In this document: one piece after another, positions 26,414-57,831 of the stretch
How the letters are laid out: the number at the start of each line of letters is the position of its first letter
Position numbering within the stretch: position 1 is the first letter of the stretch
Assembly: GCA_965204375.1 (NCBI GenBank)
Contig: OZ241986.1
Span: 5,920,001 to 5,984,000, forward strand
DNA from: Candidatus Latescibacterota bacterium
GTDB taxonomy: Bacteria; Latescibacterota; UBA2968
Length of the DNA: 64,000 nucleotides
Direction of reading: 5' to 3'
Program-made: the position numbers and the translations under genes
Notes under the pieces: generated by a model
Database searches by the model: none
The model's input: only the letters and a program-made list of their open reading frames with translations
What the model was told of the DNA's origin: nothing

Positions 26414-26417
26414 GGTA

Positions 26418-27914
<1,497 letters not shown>

Positions 27915-36380: not shown

Positions 36381-37625
36381 ATGGCTTCTGATAAACCAAA
36401 TATTGTTCTGATTTTGTCCGATGATTTGGGATATGAATGCCTGGGGTGTTATGGGGGTGAATCGTATCAAACTCCTGTGCTGGATGGGTTGAGCAAGGAG
36501 GGAATGCGTTTTGACCATGCGTATGTCCTGCCGTTGTGTACGCCGACGCGGTTACAGTTGATGACGGGTAAATACAATTTTCGCAACTGGAGAGCCTTTG
36601 GCGTGATGGACCTCCAGGAGCGCACTTTTGGGCATTTGATGAAGGAGGCTGGGTACAAAACGTGTATTTCGGGTAAATGGCAAATGTATAGCTATAATCC
36701 GCCGGATTTTGAGCCTGAGTGGCGCGGTAAGGGGCAATTGGCGGAAGATTCGGGTTTTGACGAGTATTGTTTGTGGCATACGGAACATACCGAGGATAAG
36801 GGGTCGCGGTATGCCGATCCGGTGATTCAGCAAAATGGAGCGTATTTGGAGGATACAGAGGGCAAGTACGGTCCGGATATTTTTACGGCTTATATTTGTG
36901 ATTATATCGAGCGACACAAGGATGAGCCGTTTTTTGTTTATTATCCCATGGCGCTGACACACGGCCCGTTTGAACCCACGCCCCATAGTGAAATATGGTC
37001 GGAAAACCGACACGATAGCGATGTGAAGTATTTTAAAGATATGGTTGAGTATATGGATGTGGTGATTGGGCGGATTGTGGATAAATTGGATGAACTCGGT
37101 TTGAGAGAGAATACCTTGCTTTTGTTTATTGGCGATAATGGTTCGCCCCGTCAGGTGACTTCTATTATTAATGGCCGCGAGTTCCAGGGAGGAAAGGGTC
37201 TTTCGACTGATGCGGGTACGCGGGTGCCATTTGTCGCGAGTTGGCCGGGTACGATTCCACCGGGGTCTGTGTGTGATGATTTGATCGATTGTAGCGATTT
37301 TGTGCCGTTGATGATGGATATGGCTGGCACGCCTTTGCCCGAGGACGATGTGTTTGATGGGGTGTCATTTTTGCCGCAGTTAAAGGGCGAGGCGGGAACG
37401 CCGCGCGAGTGGATTTTTGCCCATCACGATCCCCTGCCCGGATGGGGTAAGGAGGGGTACTATTTAAAGCGATGGGCACAGGATAAACGCTGGAAGCTCT
37501 ACGATACGGGCGATTTGTACGATGTTGCAGCAGATGAGTTGGAAGAACATCCAATTGTCGATGGAGGCGCAGAAGCAGAGGTAGCGCGACAAAAATTACA
37601 GCCTGTGCTGGATCGGATGAAGTAA
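36381..37625 (+). CDS. Sulfatase (S1 family, arylsulfatase-like)
   Basis: 'KPNIVLILSDDLG', CTPTR signature, 'GKW', 'GDNG'. Confidence 0.92.
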   Translation: MASDKPNIVLILSDDLGYECLGCYGGESYQTPVLDGLSKEGMRFDHAYVLPLCTPTRLQLMTGKYNFRNWRAFGVMDLQERTFGHLMKEAGYKTCISGKWQMYSYNPPDFEPEWRGKGQLAEDSGFDEYCLWHTEHTEDKGSRYADPVIQQNGAYLEDTEGKYGPDIFTAYICDYIERHKDEPFFVYYPMALTHGPFEPTPHSEIWSENRHDSDVKYFKDMVEYMDVVIGRIVDKLDELGLRENTLLLFIGDNGSPRQVTSIINGREFQGGKGLSTDAGTRVPFVASWPGTIPPGSVCDDLIDCSDFVPLMMDMAGTPLPEDDVFDGVSFLPQLKGEAGTPREWIFAHHDPLPGWGKEGYYLKRWAQDKRWKLYDTGDLYDVAADELEEHPIVDGGAEAEVARQKLQPVLDRMK

Positions 37626-37653
37626 GCGCGTTTGTTTCGCCGATATTTCCGAC

Positions 37654-37682
37654 TTGACACATTTTGTGTACAGCGATAAAAT
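37654..37682 (+). promoter_or_regulatory. Sigma70-type promoter of the four-gene ATPase/helicase operon
   Basis: TTGACA-17 nt-TAAAAT, 47 nt before ATG 37730. Confidence 0.75.
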
Positions 37683-37729
37683 TACACGCGATCGGAAATC
37701 ACTTACATCCAAAACAGAAGGTAATCAAA

Positions 37730-38587
37730 ATGGTAGATCGAGAAGAATTTCTCGAGCAAATGCAAGAGAAATTGACAGACGTGGTCAGGCCCTATCAACA
37801 GCAGCAAAACCGCCGTCAGCGAATGGCCGATTTTGTGAAACAGTGCATCCGCAGTGCCGGGCGAAATGACTTTTTTCAACTCGACGAATTGCTCAAGTCC
37901 AAAATGGCGCGGGATGTGGAAGAAGAAGTGGGACTAAAGGACGGTGCAGAGTTTTTAGATCAATTGCGTACTTATGCGGATGAACAGGTGGAGCGATACC
38001 GAATCCAATTTATAGAAGATCTGACGACATTGGCGCGTGAAGCGGAACTTCCAATAGAGGTCGATTTTCCGCGTATTGAGGTGCTCAAAGGCATAGAGGG
38101 AGATGTTGACTTTGCACAGCGGAAAACTGTGATCAATAAAAAAATCCTGAAATCCGTTGATCCAAAGCGCATCATTACTGCTCTCCGCAGGGTAAAGCAG
38201 CAACTCTATGACCGCCCTTATGATCCACAGGTGTTTATTGATGAGTTGTATAACGCATACATGGAAATTCTAAAAAAAGAGGCGCAAGAAATAGGCCACC
38301 CGGTCCCCATGCAGCAGTTGTACCTGGAATATGTGCTATCTCTTCAGAGCCGGACATTTTTTCAGGACATGGATAAGGGAAAATTTCGAGGGTATAGTCT
38401 GGATCAATTTGCGGTTGATTTATGGCGTTATTTTCAAGCCGGTATTGGGGGCACTTCAGATGGCTATGCCGTGCAGCTAAGACCGGGGCGGAACAATGCG
38501 CTATGGCTTATTGACAGCGATGGAGAGCGGCGACAGATTACGCGCATTTCTTTTTTGAACAAGCGCGAGAAAGGGCCTGAAAAATGA
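37730..38587 (+). CDS. Hypothetical soluble protein (285 aa), first gene of a putative defence operon
   Basis: Long ORF with GAAGGT RBS; stop overlaps the next start (ATGA); no recognisable catalytic motif. Confidence 0.8.
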   Translation: MVDREEFLEQMQEKLTDVVRPYQQQQNRRQRMADFVKQCIRSAGRNDFFQLDELLKSKMARDVEEEVGLKDGAEFLDQLRTYADEQVERYRIQFIEDLTTLAREAELPIEVDFPRIEVLKGIEGDVDFAQRKTVINKKILKSVDPKRIITALRRVKQQLYDRPYDPQVFIDELYNAYMEILKKEAQEIGHPVPMQQLYLEYVLSLQSRTFFQDMDKGKFRGYSLDQFAVDLWRYFQAGIGGTSDGYAVQLRPGRNNALWLIDSDGERRQITRISFLNKREKGPEK

Positions 38588-39879
38588 CACTGCAAGCTCT
38601 GGAGCAACTCAAACCCTTTGAGGCGCGGGCCATTATTGAAGATCTCCGCAAAGGCAGCGTGCCGATTGATTACGTGCCCTTTTTTAGTGTGGGGCGTCAG
38701 AACTGGTTAAAATTTATCGAAGAAGACCTGGATAACTACATCGCCGAAGGGGGCGCGAAGGTTCGCTTTATCAACGGAGACTACGGCGATGGCAAAACGC
38801 ATTTTATGTCGGTTATCAGGCACCTCGCGCTTGAAAAAAAGTTCGCCGTGTCTTTTGTGGTGCTCACGCGCGAAGTGCCCATACACAAATTTGAGATTGT
38901 CTATCAAACCATCGCGCGCCAGCTCTGCGGTTCTTTTGAAGGCGTAGGTATCCGCCAATTCGTGGATGATTGGGTCGAAAATCTGAAAGCCGATCTGACA
39001 GATGATGCACCTCTCGAAGAACAACTCTTCTCTGTGGGGGAAAGCCTGCGTGCGCTTTCTGGGATGGATCTCAATTTTGCCAATGCGCTGATCGGGTTGG
39101 CAGACAATCGCCTCAGACCGCTCGAAGCAGGTGAAGACGAAGAGGCGCGTGCATATCAGCGGGAAATTCTCTACCAGTGGTTTGAAGGCGTGCGGGTGAG
39201 CAAGCGAGAACTCAAACCGTTCCAGATTTTTGAAGCCCTCGATAAGACCAACAGCAAGCGATTTCTGACCTCGCTCATTGTCTTTTTGCGGCATCTCAAC
39301 TACAAGGGCCTCGTGCTGTTGATGGACGAATTGGAAACCGTAATCGCCCAATCGACAACCATTCGCAATGCGTCTTATGAAAATGTCCGCTTGCTGATCG
39401 ACAATGCCGAGCAAGCGTCTTATTTGCACATTTTTATGTCCATTATTCCCGATGTGACGCTCTCGGAAAAGGGATTTAAGTCCTACGACGCGCTGTGGAG
39501 TCGCGTGCGTTCTATTGGCGAAAACAAACGGCTGAATTACCGCAGCGTGTTGGTTGATCTTCACAGAACGCCTTTGGAAACCAGCGAACTGGTCAATCTG
39601 GGGCTTTGCCTGAAACGCATTCACGAACTGTCCTACCGATGGGATGCCCAGGAACAGGTCGGCGAAGATTTGTTAAACAAAATGTGTGTCGCTCAAAAGC
39701 GCATGGGGCTTTTAAGCGAGGTCCGGCTCTATATCAAGCAAGTCATTCGCATACTCGACATGGCCGAGCAAGGTGTGCCGCCAGACGAAGATATGGATAT
39801 GGCCGAGCAACTCGTGGTCAGCCAGCGAGAAATGGAGCAAGAAAAAGTTGAACAACTTCAACCGACGTGGGATGCCTGA
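38584..39879 (+). CDS. DUF2791/BrxD-like P-loop ATPase (copy 1)
   Basis: 'IIEDLRKGSVP', 'VGR', Walker A GDYGDGKT, Walker B 'GLVLLMDELE', 'SYDALWSR', 'R.YIKQVIRILD'. Confidence 0.85.
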   Translation: MTLQALEQLKPFEARAIIEDLRKGSVPIDYVPFFSVGRQNWLKFIEEDLDNYIAEGGAKVRFINGDYGDGKTHFMSVIRHLALEKKFAVSFVVLTREVPIHKFEIVYQTIARQLCGSFEGVGIRQFVDDWVENLKADLTDDAPLEEQLFSVGESLRALSGMDLNFANALIGLADNRLRPLEAGEDEEARAYQREILYQWFEGVRVSKRELKPFQIFEALDKTNSKRFLTSLIVFLRHLNYKGLVLLMDELETVIAQSTTIRNASYENVRLLIDNAEQASYLHIFMSIIPDVTLSEKGFKSYDALWSRVRSIGENKRLNYRSVLVDLHRTPLETSELVNLGLCLKRIHELSYRWDAQEQVGEDLLNKMCVAQKRMGLLSEVRLYIKQVIRILDMAEQGVPPDEDMDMAEQLVVSQREMEQEKVEQLQPTWDA

Positions 39880-41096
39880 TGACCTCTCTCCAAACGCGAT
39901 CCAATGAAACGGCATTCCACCTTCGGCGTGCCATAGAACGCCTGCGAGAAGGACTTTTTGATCCTGTTGCGGTTCGTCTGCTCACAGCCCGCGAAAGCCA
40001 TCTAAAAAAAATCATTGACCGCGATTTTCAACAACTCGGCCAGAATAAGCCAACCCATCTGTGCATCTGTGGGGCTTATGGGCAGGGCAAATCGCACAGT
40101 TTGAATTACATCCACGATCTGGCCCTGCGCGAAAATTTTGTAACCACCTTCATCAATTTAGATCCTCGAGAGATTCCCTTTCACGATATGCGACGGGTCT
40201 ATCAAGCACTCATTGCCCATCTAAAATTTCCAGATGTGGACACCGCATTGGCAGCGCGATGGCGCGCCTGGGCAAGTGACCTATCACGCGAAGACTTTGA
40301 GGACCGAGTCGCGCCGCTTTTGCAGCGGGAAATGCCGCACCTGTTCCGATCTGTCCTGACCGCGATGGCTCAAAAAACAATCTCCCTTTCAAAGCGACAG
40401 CGCGGCACTAAAAAACACGCGGCATACCGCCCGCGCGAATTTCCCTACCTGCTTTCCCGCGCACTTTCAGGTGATGTGGTGCCAGTCTATCGCTTGCGCC
40501 ACGCGCTCAAATACCGACAGGTTGATTTTTACAATGATACATCGCTCACCTGTAAAGGTGCAGAACCCTACCTGCAAGTAATTCGCGGATTGGGGCGGCT
40601 TTTTCAATTGATGGGCTACCGCGGATGGGTGTTGCTGTTTGATGAGGGAGAATCGATCTCTCAAGTGCGCGTGACCAGCCGCAGTCGCAGTTATCAGAAT
40701 TTGGATCAGATGCTTTTCTCCGCCGTTCCATCCGCATCTATTTATCCGGTTTTTGCTTTTACAGACGACTTTTTTCAAAAAGTGGATGAAGAAGAATACG
40801 ACCGGGTGCGAATCCGCAATGAAGAGGAAATTCCGTATTTTGAGAAAGATTACGCCAGTGCATGGACAGATATGAAACGCTATCTACTTCACGATTTGTC
40901 TGCAAAAGAGTGGCACGCGTTGATCGAGAAGTTGATGCACTTACATGCTAAAGCCTATCAATGGCAGCCACTCAAGGCCGCTGTGCGGCGCGAAATGACC
41001 CGGCGATTATCTCGCATGCAAGGGCAGGAGACGCGCTATCGACTCAAAGGTCTGGTCGATGAATTAGACCTCGCCCATCAAGCTCAAATTTCGTAA
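39879..41096 (+). CDS. DUF2791/BrxD-like P-loop ATPase (copy 2, divergent)
   Basis: TGATG coupling; 'AIERLREG', Walker A GAYGQGKS, Walker B 'GWVLLFDEGE', 'HAKAYQW', 'R..LKGLVDELD'. Confidence 0.8.
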   Translation: MTSLQTRSNETAFHLRRAIERLREGLFDPVAVRLLTARESHLKKIIDRDFQQLGQNKPTHLCICGAYGQGKSHSLNYIHDLALRENFVTTFINLDPREIPFHDMRRVYQALIAHLKFPDVDTALAARWRAWASDLSREDFEDRVAPLLQREMPHLFRSVLTAMAQKTISLSKRQRGTKKHAAYRPREFPYLLSRALSGDVVPVYRLRHALKYRQVDFYNDTSLTCKGAEPYLQVIRGLGRLFQLMGYRGWVLLFDEGESISQVRVTSRSRSYQNLDQMLFSAVPSASIYPVFAFTDDFFQKVDEEEYDRVRIRNEEEIPYFEKDYASAWTDMKRYLLHDLSAKEWHALIEKLMHLHAKAYQWQPLKAAVRREMTRRLSRMQGQETRYRLKGLVDELDLAHQAQIS

Positions 41097-41101
41097 CCTC
41101 C

Positions 41102-44100
41102 ATGTCTGAATCCATCTCTCCACTGCGCCAATTGCCCAATGCCTATCGCGCATTTTACGGCTCTTTTCCCTATCTCTATCCCTTTCAAAAGCAAAGTATT
41201 GAACCGATCTTACAAGGCAAAGACCTGATCTTGCAATCGGCGACCGGCTCTGGCAAAACCGAAGCCGTGCTGGCGCCGTGCATTGAGCGCATTATCCAGT
41301 CGGGGCGGCAACACACCGCGCTTTATGTGGTTCCCACACGGGCCTTGGCCGTAGATTTAGAACGCCGTCTCACACCTGTATTGAAGGATAGACTCGGCCT
41401 GCAAATGGGGATACGCACGGGCGATTTCAAACGGGCGGGCGGGGCACTGCCCGATCTGTTATTGACGACGCCCGAATCTTTTGACGTGCTCTTGGGCAGT
41501 TCAAATGCGGATTTGAAATATTTTGTCCAGCGCATTCGCACGGTCATTATCGATGAAGCACATCCCCTCATTCACCAGTATCGCGGGCGGCAATTGGCCT
41601 ATTTGCTCACGCGCTTGCAACGCCGCATCGCCGCTCCCGTGCAAAAGATCGCCCTTTCCGCCACGCTCGCTGATGTCGAGGAGGTTGCCCGTTTTTTTGG
41701 CTTTCGACCCGATACCGTCTTTCTGACTGAATCTGTCCAACGCGATATCGTCCCCCATATTGTCCATCTCAAAAACGACGCAGTCGAACTCGTAGCACTC
41801 TTAAACGATCTCTACGAAACCTACGAGTATCGCAAAATTTTGTTGTTTGCCAACAGCCGAGGATGTTGTGATCGGCTGTTTTCTCTTTTGTCGCGTCAAG
41901 GCGCGTTTCAAGGTGTTACCGACCTCCACTACTCCAACCTGAAGGCCAGCACGCGTCGCGCCGTAGAATACCGATTTCGCCGCCGCGAACACGCCCTTTG
42001 CATTGCCACGAGCACACTCGAACTCGGCATTGATATCGGCGATGTGGATAGCGTTTTGCTCTACGAACCGCCGGATGCCACATCGGCTTTTCTCCAGCGC
42101 ATTGGTCGCTCCAACAGGCGGGAGGGGCGCACGCACTTTTGGGGGATATGCCGAGGCGCAGATGCACAGACGCAATTGCTCAGATTTTTGGGCATGCTGA
42201 ACATGGCGCGCCGCGGCCATATTGAAACACCACAACCCAAAACCCTGCCCAGCGTTCTCGTCCAGCAAATGCTCTCCTGCTTGTACGAAAAGAAAACCAT
42301 CACGCAGTCTGCTCTTTGCGATTTGTTTCCCGATCAGCGGGACATGATCGCCCATTTGTTTGAGGCGATGGCGCGGCAACAGTGGTTGCGAAAAGATCGC
42401 GTCACGGGTCTTTTTAAGGGGGGACGACGCTATCGCGATTATTTTTTAGAACGGCGTATTTGGAGCAATTTCCCCGAGACCGAAGAGGATTATGTGCTGG
42501 AATTTGCGGGCGAAGCCATTGCAGATTTGCCCAAATTCATCGTTCGACAATTGGAACTCGATGACCGCGTGCAACTGACGGGCAAGCGATTGCGCGTTTT
42601 GAATATTGAAACGGGTGAACGCAAAAGAGTGATTGCCCAACCGACAGATCGAATAGACGAGAAAGAGCTTTTCTGGCTGGGTGCGGGATTTCGGGTGTCT
42701 TATGAAGTCGCACAATCGGTTCGAGATATTCTTCATAAGGATACCGAAAAAAGCGCGTTGGGCCTGTTTTCTCGCACGCGAAAATTGCTCAACGATGCAG
42801 CGAGAAGTCTGAAGCGCACGGTTGTTTTGCACAATAGCATTGAAGTTGAACGCAGTTTGGGCGGCCTGTATCGCTATCGCACCTATCTCGGTTCTGTGGG
42901 CAATCTCGTGTTACAGTGGATCATTGAACGCGAGTATGGCGATCTGGAAGATTTTACGGTGACTTCAGATAGTATCGGTATAGACTGTTCTCATTGGGTC
43001 AATTTTCAAGCACTCCCTCTCCCGCAAGATCGCGAAGACTTTGCCCACTGGGTGAAAGAACACCTGGAATCCCTGTACAGCCTGTTTCCTCTCAATGCCT
43101 TTTGTGAGGTATTGCCCCGCGCCCTGTTGGTCGAAGAAATCGCGGATTTTCTTTTTGATCCGCGCGTTGCCAAAACCTTCCAGCACTATCTAAAACGTCC
43201 TTCGGAAATCGCGTCTGGTGATCCCGCTCTGCTCGCGGAAACTATTTACGAGATCGAATCTCACGCGGTTTTTCTCGATACCAAAATACAAACAGATCTG
43301 CTCACCTGGGAAAGACAGCGGTGGCACGCGGACCGACACACAGCATCCGACATGCACTATCGCCCGAGGTCGCTTACGGGCACGATGGTGGGCGCGTATT
43401 TTTTGCACCATCAATGTGAACGCTGGTTGGCCCTCAATTTTGTACCCGCTGAACAAACCCAATGGCGAGATAGCGATACAGACTTGAACGCGCTTCGGAT
43501 GGAACGGGGAAATCTGCACGAAAAACAGGTGCTGAATCGCATTCGGGAGGTCAATGTTTTGCACGAAGTGGCGGCGTTTGACCACATGGGTAGGCGACTT
43601 TCCCTGAAATCGCGATTTGAAACCACCCTCGCGCTGTTAAGAGACACAGACGCAATTTCCGATCAATCGACATTTTTGTTTCAAGCCGTCCTGATCCAGC
43701 CATCTGTTTTGGGGCAACAAGACCACTGGATGAGCCATGTAAATGGCATCGGCATTCCCGATCTCATCCGCATTTCAAAAGCAGACCGCGGCGTTGTGTT
43801 GCAAGTGGGCGACATCAAGAACAGCCGCAGGCCCTACGAGACACAGAAGTGGCAGGTTGCATTTTACGCCTATATACTCGACCGCGTGATCGCGCAACAC
43901 GAGTTGCCCATGCGCGTGGCGTCTTCGGGGTTTCTGATGCTGCGTTCCAAAGGGGTAGACGGATCACCCGAACCACATGTTTTTGATCTCGAACCCTACC
44001 TGACGGCCCTTCAGATGATGTTTCGAAATATGAACAGCGTATTGCAACGCGCCCCAGCCCGCGCGCGTTATCACCTCCAAACCCACTGTACGACGTGCCC

Positions 44101-46768
44101 CAATTTTGAGGCGTGTTATCGGGATGCACTTCAAGAGGATATTCAGCTTGTGCCGCATTTGAGCGCGGGTGCGCTGCAAAAGTTTCGCCAATGCGATCTC
44201 AAAACCATCGCATCTGCCCATGCGTGGTTTGAATCTGTTTCCGTTTCAGGGGACGATCTTTTCAGCCCACACCAGAAAACACAACTTTCGGGCCAACTCG
44301 CCGCGCTACAAGCAAATAAAATCGGTCTGAAGGACGAACAAACGCGGTCTTATCCGAGTAATTTATCCACAGCCATTTTCATACACATCGCAGAAGACCC
44401 CGTTTCGGGACACCCACGCGCGATAGGTTGGCGCGCCCTGCAGGGGAAAACGGTGGTCGAGAGCCAGATCCTCGAGGTCGCATCAGAGGGCGAGTTGCCA
44501 GAGGCGTTGCGGGATTTCACGGCGCGTTTTTTGTCCGTCTGGAATCGAGGTATCAAAGACGGACGAGGGCCACATGTTTTCCACTTTGGAACGCGCTGCT
44601 GGCAGACTTTTGAGGATTGGTGCGAGGGATCAGAAGATCTGTCTTTTTTGTTTTTGCCCCATCGCAACCACCGCACAGATTTGCAAAAGCTGATTGCTTC
44701 GCAATTCGATTTTCCCATGCCGGGCAATCCCACGCTTTTCGCACTCAACCGCCTGTTGGGTCTCAATGCCGAACTCAATGAGCCGCAAAGTCTGTTTCAT
44801 TTTGATGATGGCGAAGGGATACAAGAAGAAAAAATGGTCGAATATCTCAACACCGTATTGCGCTTGCAAATATCGCTGTGGCAATGGGTGTCTTCGCACT
44901 TGACGAGCGCGTGGGAAAAGGGCGAATGGGATCCCGCGATGGATGATATGCAGAGCACACAAACGGCCTATTTGAATTTTCTGTCCGAGGAGCGGCGGCT
45001 CCGCGAAGAAGATGTGCTCGCCGTACAAGCCCTTCCCCTGTCTGAGCGCGTGGAACGCTTTCGCGCCCTGGGCCCCATCCGTTTTCAAAAAACGACGCTC
45101 GACGACGAAGGCCGTTTTCTCTATGAATTTCAGATTGTACCAGAAACCGGCCTCTCAAAATTCCGCGCAGGCGATTTTCTCAAACTCGCGCCCATTGGCC
45201 TGTCAGATGTGCAAAACGGTTTGCCCGTCATCCTTACAGATCACAGCTCAGAGCACTTGTCGGTGCAATCTCGGCAGGGGCGATTGGCCTTAAATCCGAG
45301 GCTTATGTATTCTCTGGAAGAGGATTTGACCGATTGGAATGGCCCCCGGTTGGTTCACGCTGTTCAGACCGTTTTTTCGGAAGACCGCGTGCATCCCCTG
45401 TCACAACTTCTGTCCGGCAACTGGCAGGCGGCGCGAGAACCCGATGCGTTGAGATGGGTGCAAAATTGGATGCGCGGATTTGGCGCGATAGCAGGACTCA
45501 ATGAGACGCAACAACAGGCACTATCATTGCCTTTTACACATCGCTTGAGCCTGATTGAAGGGCCGCCTGGAACGGGCAAAACGCACTTGTTGGGTTGGAT
45601 ACTCATTGCATTGATCCTGCATGCTCAAGAAGAGAGCAGGCCGTTGCGGATTGCCGTCAGCGCGTTGACGCATCAGGCCATTGACCAGGTGCTCGCCAAA
45701 GTGGTCGCGCTCGTGGAAGAACACGGCTTGCAAGGCTTTCCCGCACGATGCTTCAAATTGGGACGGTGGGATTTGACAGAGCACGGGGTAGAACCTTTAG
45801 AGGATGTAGAAACACTCGCAGAGTCTTCTTATGCGATTTTGGGTGCCACGGGATTTGGCCTCTATCAGCTTTTTGAAGGTCACAAGGGAACTTTCCCACA
45901 GGTGTTTGATTGGGTTGTATTCGATGAGGCATCCCAGATGCTCATTCCCCAGGCCCTGTTGAGCTTGCTCTATGGCAAGGGGAATTTCCTCTTTGCCGGA
46001 GACACCAAACAATTGCCACCCATTGTCCTGTCAGATCGCAAGGAGGAAAATGGCACACACCATTCCGCGCTGTCTTATCTGCTCAGTCAATACGACTCTG
46101 CCCACCGCGTCCGCCTGGATCGCACGTATCGAATGAACGAAGACCTGTGCTCTTTTCCCAGTCACATGTGGTATGATGGCGAACTTCGCGCAGACGCTGG
46201 CAATGCGCTAAACCGCCTCGCGCTGCAATACACCGACCACCGCGACCTGTTAGATCGCGTTCTCGACCCGGCAAAACCGGTCGTACTCCTCATCGTAGAT
46301 CACCGCGGTCACCACCAGAAATCCGATGAAGAAATCGAGATCACAACCCAACTCGCCCATCGGTTGATCGCCGAACACGGTTTGGATGCCGATCAAATCG
46401 CCCTGATTTCTCCCCACCGCGCACAAAATAACGCCACCGCTGACAGCCTTGCAAAGCGACTGGGCGATGCCAATGCCAAATTGCCCTTGATCGATACGGT
46501 AGAACGCGTTCAGGGCGCGGAACGCGATGTCATTTTGTATGCTTTCACCACATCTGATCCCGACTATGTCACCAGTCCATTTTTGAACAATCCCAATCGC
46601 TTTAATGTGGCGATCACACGCGCCAGACAAAAGTTGATTGTGGTGGGCAGTCAGGCATTTTTCTCTGCCATTCCACAATCAGAGGACGCATTAAAAGCCA
46701 ACCGATGTTTCAAGGCGTTTTACGAATTTTGTCGAGAACGAGAGAGTTTGTTTTTTTGGAGTGGTTAG
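41102..46768 (+). CDS. Fusion of Lhr/BrxHI-like SF2 DEAH helicase, 4-Cys PD-(D/E)xK (TM0106/RecB/Cas4-like) nuclease and Dna2/Upf1-like SF1 helicase (1888 aa)
   Basis: SF2: SATGSGKT, PTRAL, TTPES, DEAH, SAT, ATSTLELGIDIG, QRIGRSNR. Nuclease: QCER..GNLHE..GIPDLI..GDIK..QVAFY..CTTCPNFEAC. SF1: LNETQ, GPPGTGKT, DEASQ, GDTKQLPP, YRM, TVERVQGAE, NVAITRAR. Confidence 0.88.
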   Translation: MSESISPLRQLPNAYRAFYGSFPYLYPFQKQSIEPILQGKDLILQSATGSGKTEAVLAPCIERIIQSGRQHTALYVVPTRALAVDLERRLTPVLKDRLGLQMGIRTGDFKRAGGALPDLLLTTPESFDVLLGSSNADLKYFVQRIRTVIIDEAHPLIHQYRGRQLAYLLTRLQRRIAAPVQKIALSATLADVEEVARFFGFRPDTVFLTESVQRDIVPHIVHLKNDAVELVALLNDLYETYEYRKILLFANSRGCCDRLFSLLSRQGAFQGVTDLHYSNLKASTRRAVEYRFRRREHALCIATSTLELGIDIGDVDSVLLYEPPDATSAFLQRIGRSNRREGRTHFWGICRGADAQTQLLRFLGMLNMARRGHIETPQPKTLPSVLVQQMLSCLYEKKTITQSALCDLFPDQRDMIAHLFEAMARQQWLRKDRVTGLFKGGRRYRDYFLERRIWSNFPETEEDYVLEFAGEAIADLPKFIVRQLELDDRVQLTGKRLRVLNIETGERKRVIAQPTDRIDEKELFWLGAGFRVSYEVAQSVRDILHKDTEKSALGLFSRTRKLLNDAARSLKRTVVLHNSIEVERSLGGLYRYRTYLGSVGNLVLQWIIEREYGDLEDFTVTSDSIGIDCSHWVNFQALPLPQDREDFAHWVKEHLESLYSLFPLNAFCEVLPRALLVEEIADFLFDPRVAKTFQHYLKRPSEIASGDPALLAETIYEIESHAVFLDTKIQTDLLTWERQRWHADRHTASDMHYRPRSLTGTMVGAYFLHHQCERWLALNFVPAEQTQWRDSDTDLNALRMERGNLHEKQVLNRIREVNVLHEVAAFDHMGRRLSLKSRFETTLALLRDTDAISDQSTFLFQAVLIQPSVLGQQDHWMSHVNGIGIPDLIRISKADRGVVLQVGDIKNSRRPYETQKWQVAFYAYILDRVIAQHELPMRVASSGFLMLRSKGVDGSPEPHVFDLEPYLTALQMMFRNMNSVLQRAPARARYHLQTHCTTCPNFEACYRDALQEDIQLVPHLSAGALQKFRQCDLKTIASAHAWFESVSVSGDDLFSPHQKTQLSGQLAALQANKIGLKDEQTRSYPSNLSTAIFIHIAEDPVSGHPRAIGWRALQGKTVVESQILEVASEGELPEALRDFTARFLSVWNRGIKDGRGPHVFHFGTRCWQTFEDWCEGSEDLSFLFLPHRNHRTDLQKLIASQFDFPMPGNPTLFALNRLLGLNAELNEPQSLFHFDDGEGIQEEKMVEYLNTVLRLQISLWQWVSSHLTSAWEKGEWDPAMDDMQSTQTAYLNFLSEERRLREEDVLAVQALPLSERVERFRALGPIRFQKTTLDDEGRFLYEFQIVPETGLSKFRAGDFLKLAPIGLSDVQNGLPVILTDHSSEHLSVQSRQGRLALNPRLMYSLEEDLTDWNGPRLVHAVQTVFSEDRVHPLSQLLSGNWQAAREPDALRWVQNWMRGFGAIAGLNETQQQALSLPFTHRLSLIEGPPGTGKTHLLGWILIALILHAQEESRPLRIAVSALTHQAIDQVLAKVVALVEEHGLQGFPARCFKLGRWDLTEHGVEPLEDVETLAESSYAILGATGFGLYQLFEGHKGTFPQVFDWVVFDEASQMLIPQALLSLLYGKGNFLFAGDTKQLPPIVLSDRKEENGTHHSALSYLLSQYDSAHRVRLDRTYRMNEDLCSFPSHMWYDGELRADAGNALNRLALQYTDHRDLLDRVLDPAKPVVLLIVDHRGHHQKSDEEIEITTQLAHRLIAEHGLDADQIALISPHRAQNNATADSLAKRLGDANAKLPLIDTVERVQGAERDVILYAFTTSDPDYVTSPFLNNPNRFNVAITRARQKLIVVGSQAFFSAIPQSEDALKANRCFKAFYEFCRERESLFFWSG

Positions 46769-47048
46769 TGGTTAGTCCGCCCAACTCCCAGTCTCAAGTA
46801 TTCAGCCCCTTCTTTGCCTTTCTTTATGTCTTCGTGTCTTTGTGTGAAGCCCTCGCACCCCGCACTTCCCCTGCACATTTTGTTCTCTCCGAACTACCTA
46901 TTGTGAATAGATCGTTCAACACATGTCCGCTTTGATATGATGTAAATTTTTTTAAAACAATGAGTTATTGTTTTAAGTAGTTCTGGCACGTTCCTTGCCT
47001 GATTCTATTGCTTCTTTCAGCAGGTTCCTTTCAGGCAAGGAGGTTTTG

Positions 47049-51435: not shown

Positions 51436-52812
51436 CTAACCTCTGGCCGCTCTGTTAATGCCTTTGATTTTTTGATTTGCTTTGGCGCGCTGGTCAATTT
51501 CTTCGGGGGTGACGATGTTGTGGAGGTCGGCGCGAAGGTCGGAGAGGATGTCGGCACAGGTGGGGTCGTCGGCGCAATTCTCGGTTTCATCGGGGTCGTT
51601 GGCGACGTTGAATAATTGGTCGGGGAGACCGACGTAGTGGATGTATTTCCAGTCGCCTTTTTTGATCATGAAGCCGCCGTTTAGCGTGCCCTGGGCGTGG
51701 TATTCGCTGAAGATGGGGCGGTCGGGGAAGGAATGACCGTGGATGGCGGGGAGGAGGCTGCTGCCGGGCAATGGCGCGGGGTCCTGTTCGGCGAGGTCCA
51801 GAAGGGTGGGGAGGATGTCGATGAGGTTGGCTCCTGCGGCGATGCGCTGGTTGCCCTCGGCGTTTGGGTGGCGAATGATCATGGGGACGCGTACAGAGTG
51901 TTCGTAAAAGCATTGTTTTTGCCATATACCGTGGTGTCCACCCATTTCGCCGTGGTCGCTGACGTAGATGACGACGGTGTTGTCGCGCAAGGGGGAGTTA
52001 TCGACTATGTCGAGCAGGCGACCGATGAGGTCGTCCGTGAAAGAGATGAGGCCGTAGTAAGCAGCGGTTGCCGTGGTGGAGATGGCGTCGGGCAAGGGTT
52101 CTTCGTTGCGTAGCCAGTGGCGGAGTTGCTGGATGGAAGGGTGCTGGGTGTCGCAGGGTTCGGTTCTCGTTTGTGGCAAGATGACGCGGTCGGGATAGTA
52201 GCGGTCGAAGTATTCCCGCGGGCACAGGAGCGGAAAGTGGGGGTTCATGAAGCCGGTGTAGAGGAAGAAGGGACGGTCGGCGTATTGCGCGCGGGATTTG
52301 AGGAAGCGTTCGGAGAGGTCAGTAGCTGTGCTGTCGTAGTCGTTTTGCCAGTTTTCCCCGGGGCCGCATTCGGTGACGTGGCTGTTGCTGCCGCGCCGGT
52401 TGTCGGGTGTGCGCGAGGGGGCACTCATACTCCAGTGTTTCCATTTTTCGGCGTCGTCCATGAGGCGCACGCCAAAGCCGTGCAGGCGTTCGGGGCCTAT
52501 GAAGTGGGTGCGGCCGCAGACCGCGGTTTCATAGCCAGCGGCTTCGAGATAGCTGCCCATTGTGGGGATTGTTCCCGCGAGGGGTGATCCGTTATCATAG
52601 GTGCCGATCTGGTGGACGTATTGTCCGGTCATAAAGGACATGCGTGCCGGTACGCATATCGGGCAGGCGGTATAGGCGTTGTCAAAGGTGGTGCCTTCGG
52701 ATGCGAGGCGATCCAGGTGTGGCGTTTCGATATGGGGGTGACCGTAACAGCCGGTGACTGCGGGGTCGTGTTCGTCGCTCATGATGAGCAGGATGTTGGG
52801 GCGCTGGTTCAT
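51436..52812 (-). CDS. Sulfatase (choline-sulfatase-like)
   Basis: 'RPNILLIMSDEH', CVPAR, 'SDHGEMGGHHGIWQK'. Confidence 0.9.
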   Translation of the reverse strand: MNQRPNILLIMSDEHDPAVTGCYGHPHIETPHLDRLASEGTTFDNAYTACPICVPARMSFMTGQYVHQIGTYDNGSPLAGTIPTMGSYLEAAGYETAVCGRTHFIGPERLHGFGVRLMDDAEKWKHWSMSAPSRTPDNRRGSNSHVTECGPGENWQNDYDSTATDLSERFLKSRAQYADRPFFLYTGFMNPHFPLLCPREYFDRYYPDRVILPQTRTEPCDTQHPSIQQLRHWLRNEEPLPDAISTTATAAYYGLISFTDDLIGRLLDIVDNSPLRDNTVVIYVSDHGEMGGHHGIWQKQCFYEHSVRVPMIIRHPNAEGNQRIAAGANLIDILPTLLDLAEQDPAPLPGSSLLPAIHGHSFPDRPIFSEYHAQGTLNGGFMIKKGDWKYIHYVGLPDQLFNVANDPDETENCADDPTCADILSDLRADLHNIVTPEEIDQRAKANQKIKGINRAARG

Positions 52813-52813
52813 G

Positions 52814-54244
52814 CTAATATCTTCCTATGCGTTTGGGACCGGGGTCGGCGCATATCACGGTGTGGTCAAAGTTTTGTTTGATGAGCTGGTATTTCAAATC
52901 TGTGTGGGATGGGTCTTCCCAGAGGTTGTGAAATTCATCGGGGTCTTCCCATAGATCGTAGAATTCGCCATAGTTTTCGTTGTGATAGACGACGAGTTTG
53001 TAGCGGTTGTTGCGCAACATGGTCGCCCAACAGGGTTTGTGTTTTTCAGAGGCGTGTGGGGCGAATTTATCGACGACGTCGTAGTATTCACAGCGGACAA
53101 ATTCGTGGTGCGCGTGCCCGGGATCTTCGCCCGTGAGAATGGGGATGAGGGATTTGCCGTGTGTCCATTCGAGAGAGATGCCGGCGAGGTCGGCAAGGGT
53201 GGGTGCTATGTCTAAGAGCGCGGTGAGGCCATCTGCGCGGTGGCCCTGGAGAAAGGTACCGGGCCACGAGATGATGAGAGGAACCCGCACGAGGGCTTCG
53301 TAGAAGCGGCAGCCTTTGCCGGTGAGGCCGTGATCGCCGAGCATTTCGCCGTGGTCGCTCGTGAAGATGACGACGGTATTTTCGCGTTGACCCGTGCGCT
53401 CGAGTGCATCGAGCATGCGACCGACGTTTTCGTCGATGAGGGCGATCATGCCGTAGTATGACGCTTTGTTGTGCTGTTCGCGGTCGCCGGGTGGGTTGCC
53501 TTCCTTGTCAGCAAAAAAGCGTTTGAGTCGCGTTTGTGTTTGCAGGTCGTTTTCGCAAAATAGCGGCGGTGGCAGGTCAGCGGGATTGTATTTGTGTGTG
53601 TCGGGGGCGTCAAAAGGTCCGTGCGGGTCAAAGGGGTTGACGCTCATGAGCCAGGGGCCGTCGTGGGGGGATTCGATAAATTCAATGGCGCGGTCCGCAC
53701 ACCAGGTGGTCTGGTGGTGTTGGGGATTCATGTCGGGACGATAGTTGCCGTATGTGCCGTCTTTTTTTGTTTGAAAGACGTCGCCGAGGTCTATGCCCTG
53801 TTCGGTGATCCAGTCGGTGTACTGGTTGCCAATTCCGATGCCTTGATTGTGTGAGTGGCTATACCAGAATTTGCGATATCCATCGTCAACGCGTTGTTCT
53901 TCGCCGTTCCAGGCAGAGGCGAGGTGGAGTTTGCCCGATAAGCCGCAATCGTATCCGACATCTGCGAGACGTTTGGTGATGAGTTGCACGCGTTCATTTG
54001 TCGGGAAATAGGCATTGCCATTGCGATTGCCGTGTACGGTGCTGGGATAAAGCCCGGTGAGAAAGCTGGAGCGACTGGGCGTGCATATCGCGCTCTGGCA
54101 GTGGGCATGTGTGAATGCGACGCCCTCGGCGCAGAGGCGGTCGAGGTTGGGTGTCTGGATGTGTTCATTGCCGAGGGCGTGGATGGTGTCGTAGCGTTGT
54201 TGATCGGTGCAGATCCAGAGGATGTTGGGGCGTTTTGATGTCAA
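52814..54244 (-). CDS. Sulfatase (S1 family)
   Basis: 'RPNILWICTDQQR', CTPSR, 'GKLH', 'SDHG'; GAGGAG RBS before TTG 54244. Confidence 0.9.
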   Translation of the reverse strand: MTSKRPNILWICTDQQRYDTIHALGNEHIQTPNLDRLCAEGVAFTHAHCQSAICTPSRSSFLTGLYPSTVHGNRNGNAYFPTNERVQLITKRLADVGYDCGLSGKLHLASAWNGEEQRVDDGYRKFWYSHSHNQGIGIGNQYTDWITEQGIDLGDVFQTKKDGTYGNYRPDMNPQHHQTTWCADRAIEFIESPHDGPWLMSVNPFDPHGPFDAPDTHKYNPADLPPPLFCENDLQTQTRLKRFFADKEGNPPGDREQHNKASYYGMIALIDENVGRMLDALERTGQRENTVVIFTSDHGEMLGDHGLTGKGCRFYEALVRVPLIISWPGTFLQGHRADGLTALLDIAPTLADLAGISLEWTHGKSLIPILTGEDPGHAHHEFVRCEYYDVVDKFAPHASEKHKPCWATMLRNNRYKLVVYHNENYGEFYDLWEDPDEFHNLWEDPSHTDLKYQLIKQNFDHTVICADPGPKRIGRY

Positions 54245-54255
54245 TGGTGGTCTCC

Positions 54256-55677
54256 TCAATCGCGCGCGCCTCTGATAACGCGGCCATTTTCGATCCAGTG
54301 ATCGCGGTAAAAGGTAATGGGTTCAAAGGTGTCGTTTAATGCGTCCATGCGCGCCCGAATCTGGTCGCGGTAATGCTGGATTGTTCTGGCATGGTCAGGG
54401 TGGCTGGCGAGATTGTGCAATTGCAGAGGGTCTTCGCGGTGATTGTAGAGGGATTCTCCATGTTTTTCAATGGCATAGGTATATTGTTTGTCGCGCAAAG
54501 CGCGCCATTCAAAGCCATCGTCCCAATCGACACTGGGACCCATGCCCTGCAAAAATGCAGCTTCGGGTTCTTTTCCCGGCTGACCAAATGCGCAATGCGA
54601 AAGGTCAAATCCATCGATACCATCGGGGATATCGACGTCTATAAGTGAGAGTAGCGTGGGCATGATATCGGGCGTGTTGAGGCAGGCATCGCTTTCAGAG
54701 TTGGGTGCGATGCGGTTGGGCCAGCGCATGAGAAAGGGGACGCGAGCAGCTTCTTCATAGTAGATGTTTTTCTGAACGCGACCGTGTGCGCCAAACATTT
54801 CGCCGTGGTCTGATGTGAAGACGACAAGGGTGTCGTGCGCGAGGTTGAATCTGTCTATCGCGTCTAATATTCGGCCCACGTTCCAGTCGAGGTTGGCAGT
54901 CATAGCGGCATAGATTCGCTGCCATTCAACGAGGTTGGGTTTGACGGATTTCATCCACCAATCGCGGTCGAACCATGCGTGCCAGTATTCTCCTGATCCG
55001 TCCCGGTAATTTGGCGGCAGGTCAAAGGCCATGTCTTTGAAGTGCATACCCCATTCTTCGGGGATGTTGTCCCAGTTCCAGGGCTGATGAGGTGTGCCAT
55101 AAGAGACGAAGAGGGCGAAAGGTTCTGGATTTTCGCTCGCGTTTTCGAGATAGGAGATGGCGAGGTCGGTCATGGCATCGGGTTCATAGGCCTGGATGTC
55201 GATGCGTTCAAATTTGTCTTCGTAATAAAATCCCTTGTAATAGCTGTGGTTGAAGTTGTAGGCTGCCCAATAGTGGTCAAATCCCAGTCGGTGCGGGCCT
55301 GGGGGCACGAATTGATTGGCGGGATTCTTGTGAAAATCTCCGGCCTGTTTATAGACCTTGCCTTCGGTTGCGTAAATGTGCCATTTGCCGATGTAGGCAC
55401 AGTTTATGCCGTTCCGCGTCAATGTGCCGGCAAGCGTTGGCAGGTCGGTGCGGGCGCTCAATTCGTTCATGACGTAGCCATTGGTGGTGGGATAACAGCC
55501 CGTAAAGAGGGATGCACGATGCGGGCTGCACACGGGATAGACCGAGGTGGCATTGACAAAGTTGATGCCTTCAGATGATAGGCGGTCGATATTGGGGGTG
55601 CGGGCGCGGTTGTCGCCCATATAGCCACAGGATTGCGGGCGGAGTTGATCGGCGAAGATGTAGAGAAGGTTAGGCAC
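54256..55677 (-). CDS. Sulfatase (S1 family)
   Basis: 'PNLLYIFADQ', CSPHR, 'GKWH', 'SDHG'. Confidence 0.9.
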   Translation of the reverse strand: MPNLLYIFADQLRPQSCGYMGDNRARTPNIDRLSSEGINFVNATSVYPVCSPHRASLFTGCYPTTNGYVMNELSARTDLPTLAGTLTRNGINCAYIGKWHIYATEGKVYKQAGDFHKNPANQFVPPGPHRLGFDHYWAAYNFNHSYYKGFYYEDKFERIDIQAYEPDAMTDLAISYLENASENPEPFALFVSYGTPHQPWNWDNIPEEWGMHFKDMAFDLPPNYRDGSGEYWHAWFDRDWWMKSVKPNLVEWQRIYAAMTANLDWNVGRILDAIDRFNLAHDTLVVFTSDHGEMFGAHGRVQKNIYYEEAARVPFLMRWPNRIAPNSESDACLNTPDIMPTLLSLIDVDIPDGIDGFDLSHCAFGQPGKEPEAAFLQGMGPSVDWDDGFEWRALRDKQYTYAIEKHGESLYNHREDPLQLHNLASHPDHARTIQHYRDQIRARMDALNDTFEPITFYRDHWIENGRVIRGARD

Positions 55678-56679: not shown

Positions 56680-57831
56680 ATGACAATTCCACGTATTTTT
56701 GAAGCACCCAAAAAAAGCTTTTTTCTTTTGGGTCCGCGCGGCGTTGGAAAAAGTACGTATTTGCGAATCGCTTTTCCCAATGCTCACGTCATCAATTTGC
56801 TCGCCGAAGATATTTACCAGCGTCTGCTTGCAAATCCGGGCCTCCTGTCTGCAGAACTTCGGGCTGTGTCTGGCGACCGCTGGGTGGTTTTGGACGAAAT
56901 ACAGAGGTTGCCAGCGTTGCTCAATGAAGTACACCGTTTTATTGAGGAAAAGGGGCTGCACTTTGTGTTAGGCGGATCGAGTGCGAGAAAACTCAAACGG
57001 GCAGGTGTTAATCTGCTTGCTGGTCGTGCCCTGTATCGCGCAATGCATCCCTTTATTCCCGAAGAATTGGGGGAACAATTCGCACTCGACGATGCTTTGC
57101 AACACGGTTTGCTACCCATTGTATGGGATTCAGAGGACAGAGCAGAGACGCTGACTGCCTATACGCAAATGTATCTCAAAGAAGAGATTCAAGCTGAGGC
57201 TCTGGTGCGCAACCTTCCGGGATTCGCGCGTTTTCTGCCGATTGCAGCGCTTTTTCACGGGCAAACCCTGAATGTGGCCAATATTGCCAGAGATGCCCAG
57301 GTTGCACGCACGACTGTGATGGGTTATCTGGATATTCTGGAGGAAACGCTTCTCTGCTTTCAACTTCCGGCTTATGAAACCAGATTGCGCGTGCGCGAAC
57401 GCAAATTGCCCAAATGGTACTGGTGTGATCCCGGTATTGTGCGTGCTATGAAAAAGGTCACGACGTCCCCAACGCCTGAGGAACGCGGTGCTCTGTTCGA
57501 AGGGCTGATTGCACAGTTGATTCGATCCTACAAAGACTATCGCAATTTGTGTGACGAATACTTCTACTGGGCAACAGCTGCACAGACTCAAACAGAAGTC
57601 GATTTCCTGCTCAAACGCGCGGAAGAATTTGTCGCAATTGAGGTCAAGTCTGGTGGCACATTTTCAGAAGCTTGGTGCAAGGGATTGAGAGCGTTGTCCG
57701 GCCTGAAGGGTTTGTGCAGACGCATTGTCGTCTATCCCGAAGGACCTGAATTACAAACTGCAGACGGTATTGAGATTCTTCCATTTTCACAGTTCTCCAA
57801 CCTGCTGGCCGCCGATGCGCTGTGGCCCTGA
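56680..57831 (+). CDS. AAA_14 plus DUF4143 ATP-binding protein
   Basis: GPRGVGKS, 'LDEIQR', 'GSS', 'LAGRA', 'KWYWCDPG', 'EVDF...AIEVKS'. Confidence 0.9.
   Translation: MTIPRIFEAPKKSFFLLGPRGVGKSTYLRIAFPNAHVINLLAEDIYQRLLANPGLLSAELRAVSGDRWVVLDEIQRLPALLNEVHRFIEEKGLHFVLGGSSARKLKRAGVNLLAGRALYRAMHPFIPEELGEQFALDDALQHGLLPIVWDSEDRAETLTAYTQMYLKEEIQAEALVRNLPGFARFLPIAALFHGQTLNVANIARDAQVARTTVMGYLDILEETLLCFQLPAYETRLRVRERKLPKWYWCDPGIVRAMKKVTTSPTPEERGALFEGLIAQLIRSYKDYRNLCDEYFYWATAAQTQTEVDFLLKRAEEFVAIEVKSGGTFSEAWCKGLRALSGLKGLCRRIVVYPEGPELQTADGIEILPFSQFSNLLAADALWP

Follow-up and report, generated by a model that had tools for sequence, protein, structure and literature searches.

A single-chain SF2 helicase, nuclease and SF1B helicase and its probable defence-type four-gene cassette in a Latescibacterota bacterium

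Which task does a bacterium assign to a protein that carries two helicase motors and a nuclease in one chain, and with which partners does this protein act? The question is raised by a locus of Candidatus Latescibacterota bacterium (assembly GCA_965204375.1, contig OZ241986.1, positions 5,920,001 to 5,984,000 of the forward strand), a stretch of 64,000 nucleotides (nt) which we call the window and to which the coordinates below refer unless another record is named. The last of four co-directional genes in it, gene 4, encodes a single chain of 1888 amino acids (aa) joining a superfamily 2 (SF2) motor, a nuclease of the iron-sulfur (Fe-S) type and a superfamily 1B (SF1B) motor; this architecture, the identity of gene 4 and its operon are firm. 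Gene 4 probably supplies the effector for a defence-type accessory cassette of four genes, which is akin to SngB-SngC of Shango and to the BrxD-BrxHI pair known from type 2 BREX. Gene 4 and its parts are listed here with the evidence on which each assignment is based.

41102..46768, plus strand: gene 4, the two-motor helicase-nuclease, one uninterrupted frame of 1888 aa
41180..43183, plus strand, residues 27-694: SF2 DExH core with BrxHI/SngC-type C-terminal domains (PADLOC profiles, PDB)
43370..44134, plus strand, residues ~757-1011: Cas4/Dna2-type PD-(D/E)xK nuclease, cysteines in a 1+3 arrangement (motifs, conservation, fold)
Residues 1012-1045 (in the model from ~994), plus strand: short helices (middle-region model)
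44267..44911, plus strand, residues ~1056-1270: RNase H-like fold (strand/helix order in the model)
44939..45421, plus strand, residues ~1280-1440: stalk helices (~1280-1310) and beta-barrel (~1322-1407) (middle-region model)
45497..46681, plus strand, residues 1466-1860: SF1B helicase core (Pfam AAA_11, AAA_12)

An earlier reading made from the letters alone (the sequence-only reading) had proposed one polypeptide with an Lhr-like SF2 half and a Dna2-like module. The frame from 41102 to 46768 is indeed one open reading frame (ORF) without a stop, and a motif scan recovered every motif named in that reading, each in its place. The domain composition proposed there was found for the motors, with Pfam DEAD (residues 27-194, 5.4e-37), Helicase_C (232-339, 3.4e-15), AAA_11 (from residue 1466, nt 45497) and AAA_12 (1656-1851) in one chain, but not for the nuclease, for which PDDEXK_1 and TIGR03491 (TM0106) remained below their cut-offs. 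The N-terminal ~690 aa carry the SF2 motifs GSGKT49, DEAH151, SAT186 and QRIGRSNR332 and match the PADLOC profiles of two defence helicases from end to end, i.e. BrxHI (3.4e-87, residues 22-694 on profile positions 22-688 of 698) and SngC (6e-72, residues 22-686 on positions 22-709 of 720), and a BrxD/SngB-type ATPase gene lies directly upstream of gene 4. Profile and gene context both place this half in the BrxHI/SngC family. The designation as Lhr-like holds insofar as Lhr is the best solved relative by sequence (5V9X of M. smegmatis, 2.8e-35, followed by 7LHL, 1.4e-34), but it does not extend to the whole profile: the NCBIfam Lhr equivalog TIGR04121 reaches 202 bits against a cut-off of 850 and covers only the helicase core (positions 15-401 of 804), and PRK09751 reaches 85 bits against 1496.

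The nuclease is recognised by its residues and by its fold. Its motifs lie at nt 43412-44116 and comprise C772 (in QCER), E807, IPD887L, GD904IK906, Q918xxxY922 and C996-x2-C999-x5-C1005. One cysteine before and a CxxCx5C cluster after the catalytic core is the spacing of Cas4/AddB/Dna2-type nucleases. In an alignment of 91 proteins of 1850-2200 aa (the query P0001 and 90 of 116 homologues), which underlies all conservation counts given here, C772, C999 and C1005 are kept in 91/91 and C996 in 90/91, and the PD-(D/E)xK set E807, D887, D904-K906 and Q918-Y922 is kept in 87-90/91 (D887 in 90/91, K906 in 89/91), bearing out both the nuclease and the cysteine arrangement seen earlier. The cysteine spacing suggests that the nuclease would bind an Fe-S cluster. 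Family profiles give low scores throughout, with 21.8 against a cut-off of 22 for PDDEXK_1, 16.3 against 22.7 for Cas_Cas4, 18.5 against 65 for TIGR00372 (cas4; E 0.0014) and 14.8 against 97.45 for TIGR03491. The PADLOC Cas4 profile matches weakly (4.5e-5), and the nuclease domain alone had no match in a PDB sequence search.

A model of residues 681-1443, built with 46 homologues (alignment A1; predicted local distance difference test score, pLDDT, 84.8; predicted template modelling score, pTM, 0.74), retrieved Dna2 as the first match in a Foldseek search of the PDB (5EAN, 7e-7, 755 columns), followed by Ighmbp2, Cas4, Exo5, MGME1, AdnAB, RecE and AddB. The TM-scores are low (0.1-0.2 overall, 0.16 to Dna2), as expected because a five-domain model is set against single domains, and we use these matches for domain naming only; the packing of the gene 4 domains against each other is not established by the model. 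Where the sequence-only reading had an HhH-like stretch, the model shows only short helices (residues 994-1044). Behind the nuclease, the predicted RNase H-like part has weak fold matches to a DnaQ domain, Argonaute and NurA (Foldseek, E 2.5e-3 to 1e-2). Catalysis in RNase H-like and DnaQ-type exonucleases depends on DxE and a further D/H. The DxE is not conserved here, the family consensus of the first strand being f.h...DP, and the family consensus retains only H1095 (60-90%), D1099-P1100, P1157-H1158 and T1192-D1193-L1194, meaning that the degenerate RNase H-like stretch of the sequence-only reading is supported at the level of the fold only. The stalk and barrel that follow (helices 600-629 and strands 642-727 in the numbering of the modelled fragment) resemble the accessory 1B domain of Upf1/Dna2-type helicases, with fold matches to Ighmbp2, Upf1 and ZNFX1.

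The C-terminal motor starts at nt 45497, close to the position of about 45500 expected earlier for an SF1 helicase, and has the full set of motifs I-VI between residues 1487 and 1842 (GPPGTGKT1487, DEASQ1608, GDTKQLPP1633, YRM1676, VERVQGAERD1800 and NVAITRAR1835). Among solved structures Dna2 is again the first match by sequence (5EAN, 8.5e-27), followed by Upf1, Sen1 and Ighmbp2, and among PADLOC profiles DpdJ (3.8e-48) and MkoA (8.4e-47) match. A nuclease followed by a barrel/stalk and a motif-complete SF1B core is the layout of Dna2, and the proposal of a Dna2-like module is upheld by Dna2 being the best match by sequence and by fold and by the existence of free-standing proteins in which such a nuclease precedes an SF1B motor. 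Catalytic residues and cysteines of gene 4 are each kept in 87-91/91, and the Walker A lysine is invariant in both motors (K52 and K1493, 91/91 each). Because of this conservation the two motors and the nuclease look non-degenerate.

Is the fusion real? An artefact of assembly or gene calling, or a chain in which one motor is a dead relic, appears extremely improbable to us. In its favour, gene 4 is in pieces in five loci (L029, L044, L049, L067, L077), where the breaks are scattered and resemble frameshifts or errors. Against it stand the 91 full-length proteins from many assemblies including complete chromosomes, showing that the homologues are not always split, and the conservation of both motor motif sets, which argues against a dead motor. 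The full-length architecture occurs in Latescibacterota, SAR324, many Desulfobacterota, Nitrospinota, Entotheonella and a few Gammaproteobacteria, and its desulfobacterotal carriers include cultured Desulfobacter species (D. vibrioformis, D. latus and D. curvatus; L039, L040, L047) and complete Electrothrix genomes. Moreover, one contig of 9265 nt from run X4, labelled 'coral metagenome' and possibly but not certainly independent of the source of the window, spans 37595-46759, and thereby virtually all of gene 4, with 169 differing letters, and an RNA-library contig of run X5 spans 42866-43630, across the junction of SF2 half and nuclease. Both cross 43200-43400, the region in which the sequence-only reading had asked for confirmation, and the fusion is continuous there. 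The X5 contig is taken as evidence of sequence continuity: RNA libraries can contain DNA, so that its cover is no proof of transcription and the stretches of the cassette left uncovered in X5 and X19 carry no meaning.

Natural split forms exist as well. Such a split recurs at query residues ~1030-1054 (L014, L076, P0115, P0116, P0117), between the helical segment that follows the nuclease and the RNase H-like part, and in these forms the nuclease goes with the SF2 half and not with the SF1B half. Where a source is named, they come from Syntrophobacteraceae or Desulforhabdus.

Both halves have free-standing relatives. Residues 757-1443 found 205 proteins at E<=0.001 among 1.84 billion representative proteins; the pattern of nuclease followed by SF1B motor is present in 26/140 newly listed ones of these, and those named are 1204-1669 aa long, mostly ~1200-1330. 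In eight free-standing proteins searched against Pfam, AAA_11/AAA_12 were found in 8/8 and Cas_Cas4 or PDDEXK_1 in 5/8. Of the free-standing relatives the closest is P0278 (1237 aa), which aligns collinearly with residues 757-1443 (1.5e-33), continues with AAA_11/AAA_12 and has Pfam RNase_H_2 at the position of the RNase H-like part, between nuclease and AAA_11 (22.7 bits against a cut-off of 22). The N-terminal half matches 3471 shorter proteins at E<=1e-30, many of ~700 aa. A tree of the N-terminal 720 residues was built from 49 short proteins and 29 members of the long family, two of which are split forms. The smallest clade to contain all 29 also takes in five short proteins, at a local support of 0.51; one node further out support rises to 0.82, and it reaches 0.96 where ten short proteins join the clade. 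The five nested proteins of ~700 aa (P0378, P0385, P0391, P0396, P0398) may be fragments or true short forms. The tree is compatible with a single fusion event behind the long family but does not prove it.

The partners of gene 4 are encoded directly upstream, within a segment that can be delimited at both ends.

37625..46897, plus strand: whole cassette, 9.27 kb (present in the window, absent from same-genus genomes)
37654..37682, plus strand: promoter-like site, sigma-70-like TTGACA-17-TAAAAT (consensus match only)
37730..38587, plus strand: gene 1, U285, 285 aa (start set from alignment A2 and the sequence)
38584..39879, plus strand: gene 2, BrxD1, BrxD/SngB-type AAA+ ATPase, 431 aa (Pfam, PADLOC)
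39867..41096, plus strand: gene 3, BrxD2, second, divergent BrxD-type ATPase, 409 aa (Pfam, PADLOC)

The three upstream genes run in the direction of gene 4 with ends that overlap or nearly abut (the start of BrxD1 overlaps the stop of gene 1), and the promoter-like site, with 11/12 consensus positions the best of six regional sites, is found immediately within the cassette's left end. BrxD1 matches Pfam BrxC_BrxD (8.9e-55) and the PADLOC profiles BrxD (1.7e-42, positions 7-421 of 440) and SngB (6.3e-33); BrxD2 matches BrxC_BrxD (2.5e-24) and BrxD (7.2e-19). The two ATPases share 21-25% identity, yet both keep an invariant Walker A (GxxGxGK) and Walker B (DE) (alignment A3). U285 matches no family in Pfam, NCBIfam or PADLOC. 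It has 574 homologues, and among the 120 matches listed none has a Pfam domain or a name beyond 'hypothetical protein'; a protein-atlas search likewise gave only 'hypothetical protein' clusters. Its AlphaFold2 model (pLDDT 86.3) shows a long helical hairpin and alpha/beta parts and has no PDB fold match at E<=0.001; the best (0.17) is to a region of ORC1, a faint lead to a possible winged-helix-like part. PDB sequence searches gave no match for the U285 profile or for BrxD1, and a complex prediction of BrxD1 with U285 scored 0.00 (mark 0.32), which we read as evidence neither for nor against an interaction.

The association of the four genes is widespread. Upstream sequence of at least 4.2 kb before gene 4 is available at 49 of the 78 species-genome loci, and in 36/49 the trio U285-BrxD1-BrxD2 precedes gene 4 in the same order. 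Whole-genome searches in five of the 13 genomes without an adjacent trio found a BrxD1 orthologue (60-69% identity) elsewhere in 4/5, each adjoining a second BrxD-like gene; in L052 the trio lies downstream of gene 4. With these partners, two BrxD-like ATPases and U285, gene 4 is better read as part of an accessory system of several genes than as a repair enzyme acting alone. Related-strain contigs carry a 9-nt insertion in BrxD2 (39910) and small insertions at 41091-41100, around the 5-nt gap between BrxD2 and gene 4, indicating that this junction varies among strains.

Between a sulfatase gene and comM the cassette is cleanly inserted or deleted. Homology to an empty site (blastn) reaches 37624 and picks up again at 46898, with ~36 bp between in the empty form, and contigs of the RNA-library runs X5 and X19 join 37624 to 46898/46901 with 36-39 other letters between. 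Since run X5 holds both forms, filled and empty alleles seem to coexist in one sample. A search with the middle region found the system in 8/61 related genomes, one of them that of the window, and in 4/20 other genomes of the genus, most of the searched genomes being 95-99% complete. comM is present in 20/21 genomes of the genus. The spacing from sulfatase to comM is 135-646 bp in 9/10 same-genus genomes without the system, and none of the ten has the cassette there.

A shorter relative is found on plasmid pDESTI.01 of Desulfomonile tiedjei, which carries a homologous four-gene operon (L097, 8755-14181) with the following products.

279-aa protein: 28% identity to U285 (3e-13)
BREX-type ATPase 1: 27% identity to a window ATPase gene (2e-20)
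BREX-type ATPase 2: 25% identity to a window ATPase gene (3e-9)
701-aa DEAD/DEAH helicase: 36% identity over 535 residues of the N-terminal half of gene 4 (1e-92)

The 701-aa helicase has neither the nuclease nor the SF1B part, so that the four-gene layout exists without this extension. The operon lies four genes downstream of an AbiEi/AbiEii toxin-antitoxin pair. Plasmids often carry BrxD-like genes (681 records at 1e-10, none reaching 60% identity), and many of them adjoin TerB-domain genes, which is the Shango layout; the middle region of gene 4 gave only four distant plasmid matches at the level of the nuclease. pDESTI.01 also bears a stand-alone PD-(D/E)XK nuclease gene and an rnhA gene.

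Which biological role do these data support? Defence against foreign DNA is the most likely role, given that the cassette is akin to BrxD-BrxHI and SngB-SngC, that its presence is patchy and polymorphic and that a short form of it is carried by a plasmid. In the mechanism we propose, the two BrxD-type ATPases, which are ORC/Cdc6-like AAA+ proteins, would together with U285 detect DNA that is foreign or abnormal and would load the gene 4 enzyme or license it. The Lhr-like SF2 motor would move 3'-to-5' on one strand and the Dna2-like SF1B motor 5'-to-3' on the other; opposite polarities on opposite strands would push both motors the same way along the duplex, as in RecBCD, while the Fe-S-stapled Cas4/Dna2-type nuclease between them would cut the unwound strand or strands. 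Such a bipolar RecBCD-like action is suggested by both motors being intact and by the polarities of their relatives: Lhr moves 3'-to-5' on single-stranded DNA and unwinds RNA:DNA duplexes (PMC5758891, in the sections cited), and Bad, an enzyme from bacteria that resembles Dna2, has an Fe-S cluster held by four cysteines and translocates 5'-to-3' (PMC7430649, in the sections cited). A more specific version we put forward tentatively, as possible and somewhat doubtful in its full detail: the four genes would form an immune system in which a hetero-oligomer of the two ATPases, with the new-family partner, places the bipolar engine on replication intermediates or on the ends of foreign DNA, the engine having arisen when a sensor helicase of the BrxHI type was fused to a free-standing enzyme like Dna2, with the nuclease-less plasmid form being ancestral.

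Several observations weigh against a defence role. Neither repeats nor an integrase were seen at the cassette ends, and a search of a phage collection with BrxD1 found no homologue. The partner genes can lie far from gene 4 (2.1 Mb in one complete Electrothrix genome), which is unusual for defence systems, and the 59-70% identity of BrxD1 across phyla is more than one expects of immune genes, which evolve fast. The flanks, surveyed over 119 of 174 flanking ORFs at 47 loci (excluding L001, L002, L005 and L007, which share the window's flanks), hold 188 Pfam families which are mostly housekeeping and differ between lineages; defence models are matched only a few times (DpdF twice, type III REase once, a few PDC models once each), which does not amount to a defence island, and the neighbours in the window itself are sulfatases, transporters, comM and a penicillin amidase. 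Finally, relatives of the Lhr and Upf1 types are active on RNA:DNA or RNA too, so that the substrate of gene 4 may be other than DNA.

Part of this would suit an accessory machine of DNA repair or recombination, in which the AAA+ pair acts as loader for end resection or fork processing and nothing is directed at foreign DNA. Lhr and Dna2 are repair or replication enzymes (PMC7430649, in the sections cited), RecC was not found in the window's genome, and the unlinked partners, the high conservation of BrxD1 and U285 and the housekeeping flanks would all be at home in such a machine. Yet a system present in so few of the related genomes and of the genus, with filled and empty sites in one run, is hard to reconcile with this; resection is probably already covered, as an AddB-like ORF (7.9e-15) exists elsewhere in the genome, and the N-terminal half fits the whole profiles of defence helicases better than the Lhr equivalog. 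We therefore consider the repair role unlikely. Less likely still, in our view, is an action on RNA:DNA hybrids or RNA, i.e. R-loops or invader transcripts, with the RNase H-like domain and the Upf1-like motor as the main activity. It would agree with the unwinding of RNA:DNA duplexes by Lhr (PMC5758891, in the sections cited), with the RNA helicases Upf1, Sen1 and Ighmbp2 following Dna2 among the SF1B matches, with the match to MkoA of Mokosh and with the presence of the RNase H-like fold, but this fold has no conserved DxE, the best solved match of both the motor and the middle region is Dna2, a DNA enzyme, and the conserved nuclease belongs to the Cas4/AddB kind that works at DNA ends.

Some features of the surroundings are recorded here in their own right. 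The local setting is one of sulfated-polymer use and not a defence island: five sulfatase genes lie within 31 kb (24755-26584, 36381-37625, 51436-55677), three of them in tandem, accompanied by MFS, TonB/ExbB, enolase-superfamily and penicillin-amidase genes. An AAA_14 + DUF4143 ATPase (56680-57831, plus strand) adjoins an AcrB-type transporter gene, and a DUF4020 ORF (5.4e-13; 62359-63915, minus strand, perhaps reaching 63999) lies 15 kb from the cassette; DUF4020 is a domain of SIR2-linked defence proteins. Among the flanks of loci L003-L058 (alignment A4) the commonest family is a PIF1/RecD-like helicase (5/119); of these ORFs three match HRDC and three HTH_40 in addition, and the PADLOC models typeIV_RecD and PDC-S68 are matched by them as well. 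Judged from ORF size, they probably correspond to the ORFs of 832 aa that immediately precede gene 4 in L016, L017 and L054, loci without the ATPase trio.

The locus matters beyond its own genome. BrxD-BrxHI and Shango are known members of anti-phage systems whose mechanism is open, and here the same ATPase-helicase module is fused in one chain to a recognisable DNA-degrading effector, which suggests that the job of the module may be the loading or licensing of a processive helicase on DNA. The cassette is tractable, being 9.3 kb long, having its own promoter-like site and being carried by cultured Desulfobacter species. For helicase mechanics, gene 4 would offer a rare case of two intact motors, probably opposite in polarity, that flank one nuclease in a single polypeptide, so that the coordination of motors could be studied free of subunit assembly.

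How does the cassette compare with known systems? BrxD and BrxHI are described as a tightly linked dyad in type 2 BREX (PMC12839542, in the sections cited), and SngC, BrxHI, DruE and DpdJ as one clade tied to immunity (PMC12278908, in the sections cited). With type 2 BREX (Pgl) the cassette shares the full-length BrxHI match, the BrxD match of gene 2 and an ATPase gene directly before the helicase; it differs by two ATPase paralogues instead of one, by the additional 285-aa gene and by the 1200 further residues of its helicase, which hold the nuclease and the second motor. None of PglZ, PglX, PglW and BrxC lies beside the cassette, and the genome-wide search, made for PglZ only, found a single PglZ-domain ORF (535 aa, G000:C1:6071826-6072401) at ~105 kb distance. 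A preprint (10.1101/2025.09.15.676423) retrieved under the name BrxHI was set aside, as it matches only via BrxHII and does not deal with the family at hand. With Shango, composed of SngA (TerB), SngB (ATPase) and SngC (helicase) and with its mechanism filed under 'Unknown' (PMC10855318, in the sections cited), the cassette shares the SngC and SngB matches and the order of small protein, ATPase and helicase, whereas its ATPase is duplicated and only 25-30% identical to BrxD/SngB-type plasmid genes and gene 4 has the nuclease and SF1B extension. Gene 1 has no TerB match at E<=5, and no TerB domain was found genome-wide (the genome is 96% complete).

As for single enzymes, gene 4 shares with Lhr the DExH core, Lhr being its closest solved relative there, but the C-terminal tetramerisation/glycosylase domain of Lhr is absent. 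Dna2 and Bad have the same order of Fe-S-type PD-(D/E)xK nuclease, barrel/stalk and SF1B motor; gene 4 differs by inserting the RNase H-like domain between nuclease and barrel, by the complete SF2 helicase in front and by its AAA+ partner genes. The free-standing proteins of ~1200-1300 aa with a Cas4-type nuclease before an SF1B motor come closest to its C-terminal part, some of them with RNase_H_2, but the SF2 half is absent from them. RecBCD, AddAB and AdnAB would share with gene 4, if the polarities proposed above hold, two motors of opposite polarity together with a RecB-type nuclease, and the nuclease domains of AddB and AdnAB are among its fold matches; these complexes are built from two or three chains and not from one with one nuclease, their motors are SF1A and SF1B or SF1A and a dead SF1A instead of SF2 and SF1B, and for their control by Chi no counterpart is known for gene 4. 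Searches of the literature, covering main texts and not supplementary tables, returned no description of the fusion or of the four-gene operon. As a whole, the parts are of known kinds, and the combination, the duplicated ATPase and the 285-aa partner are new.

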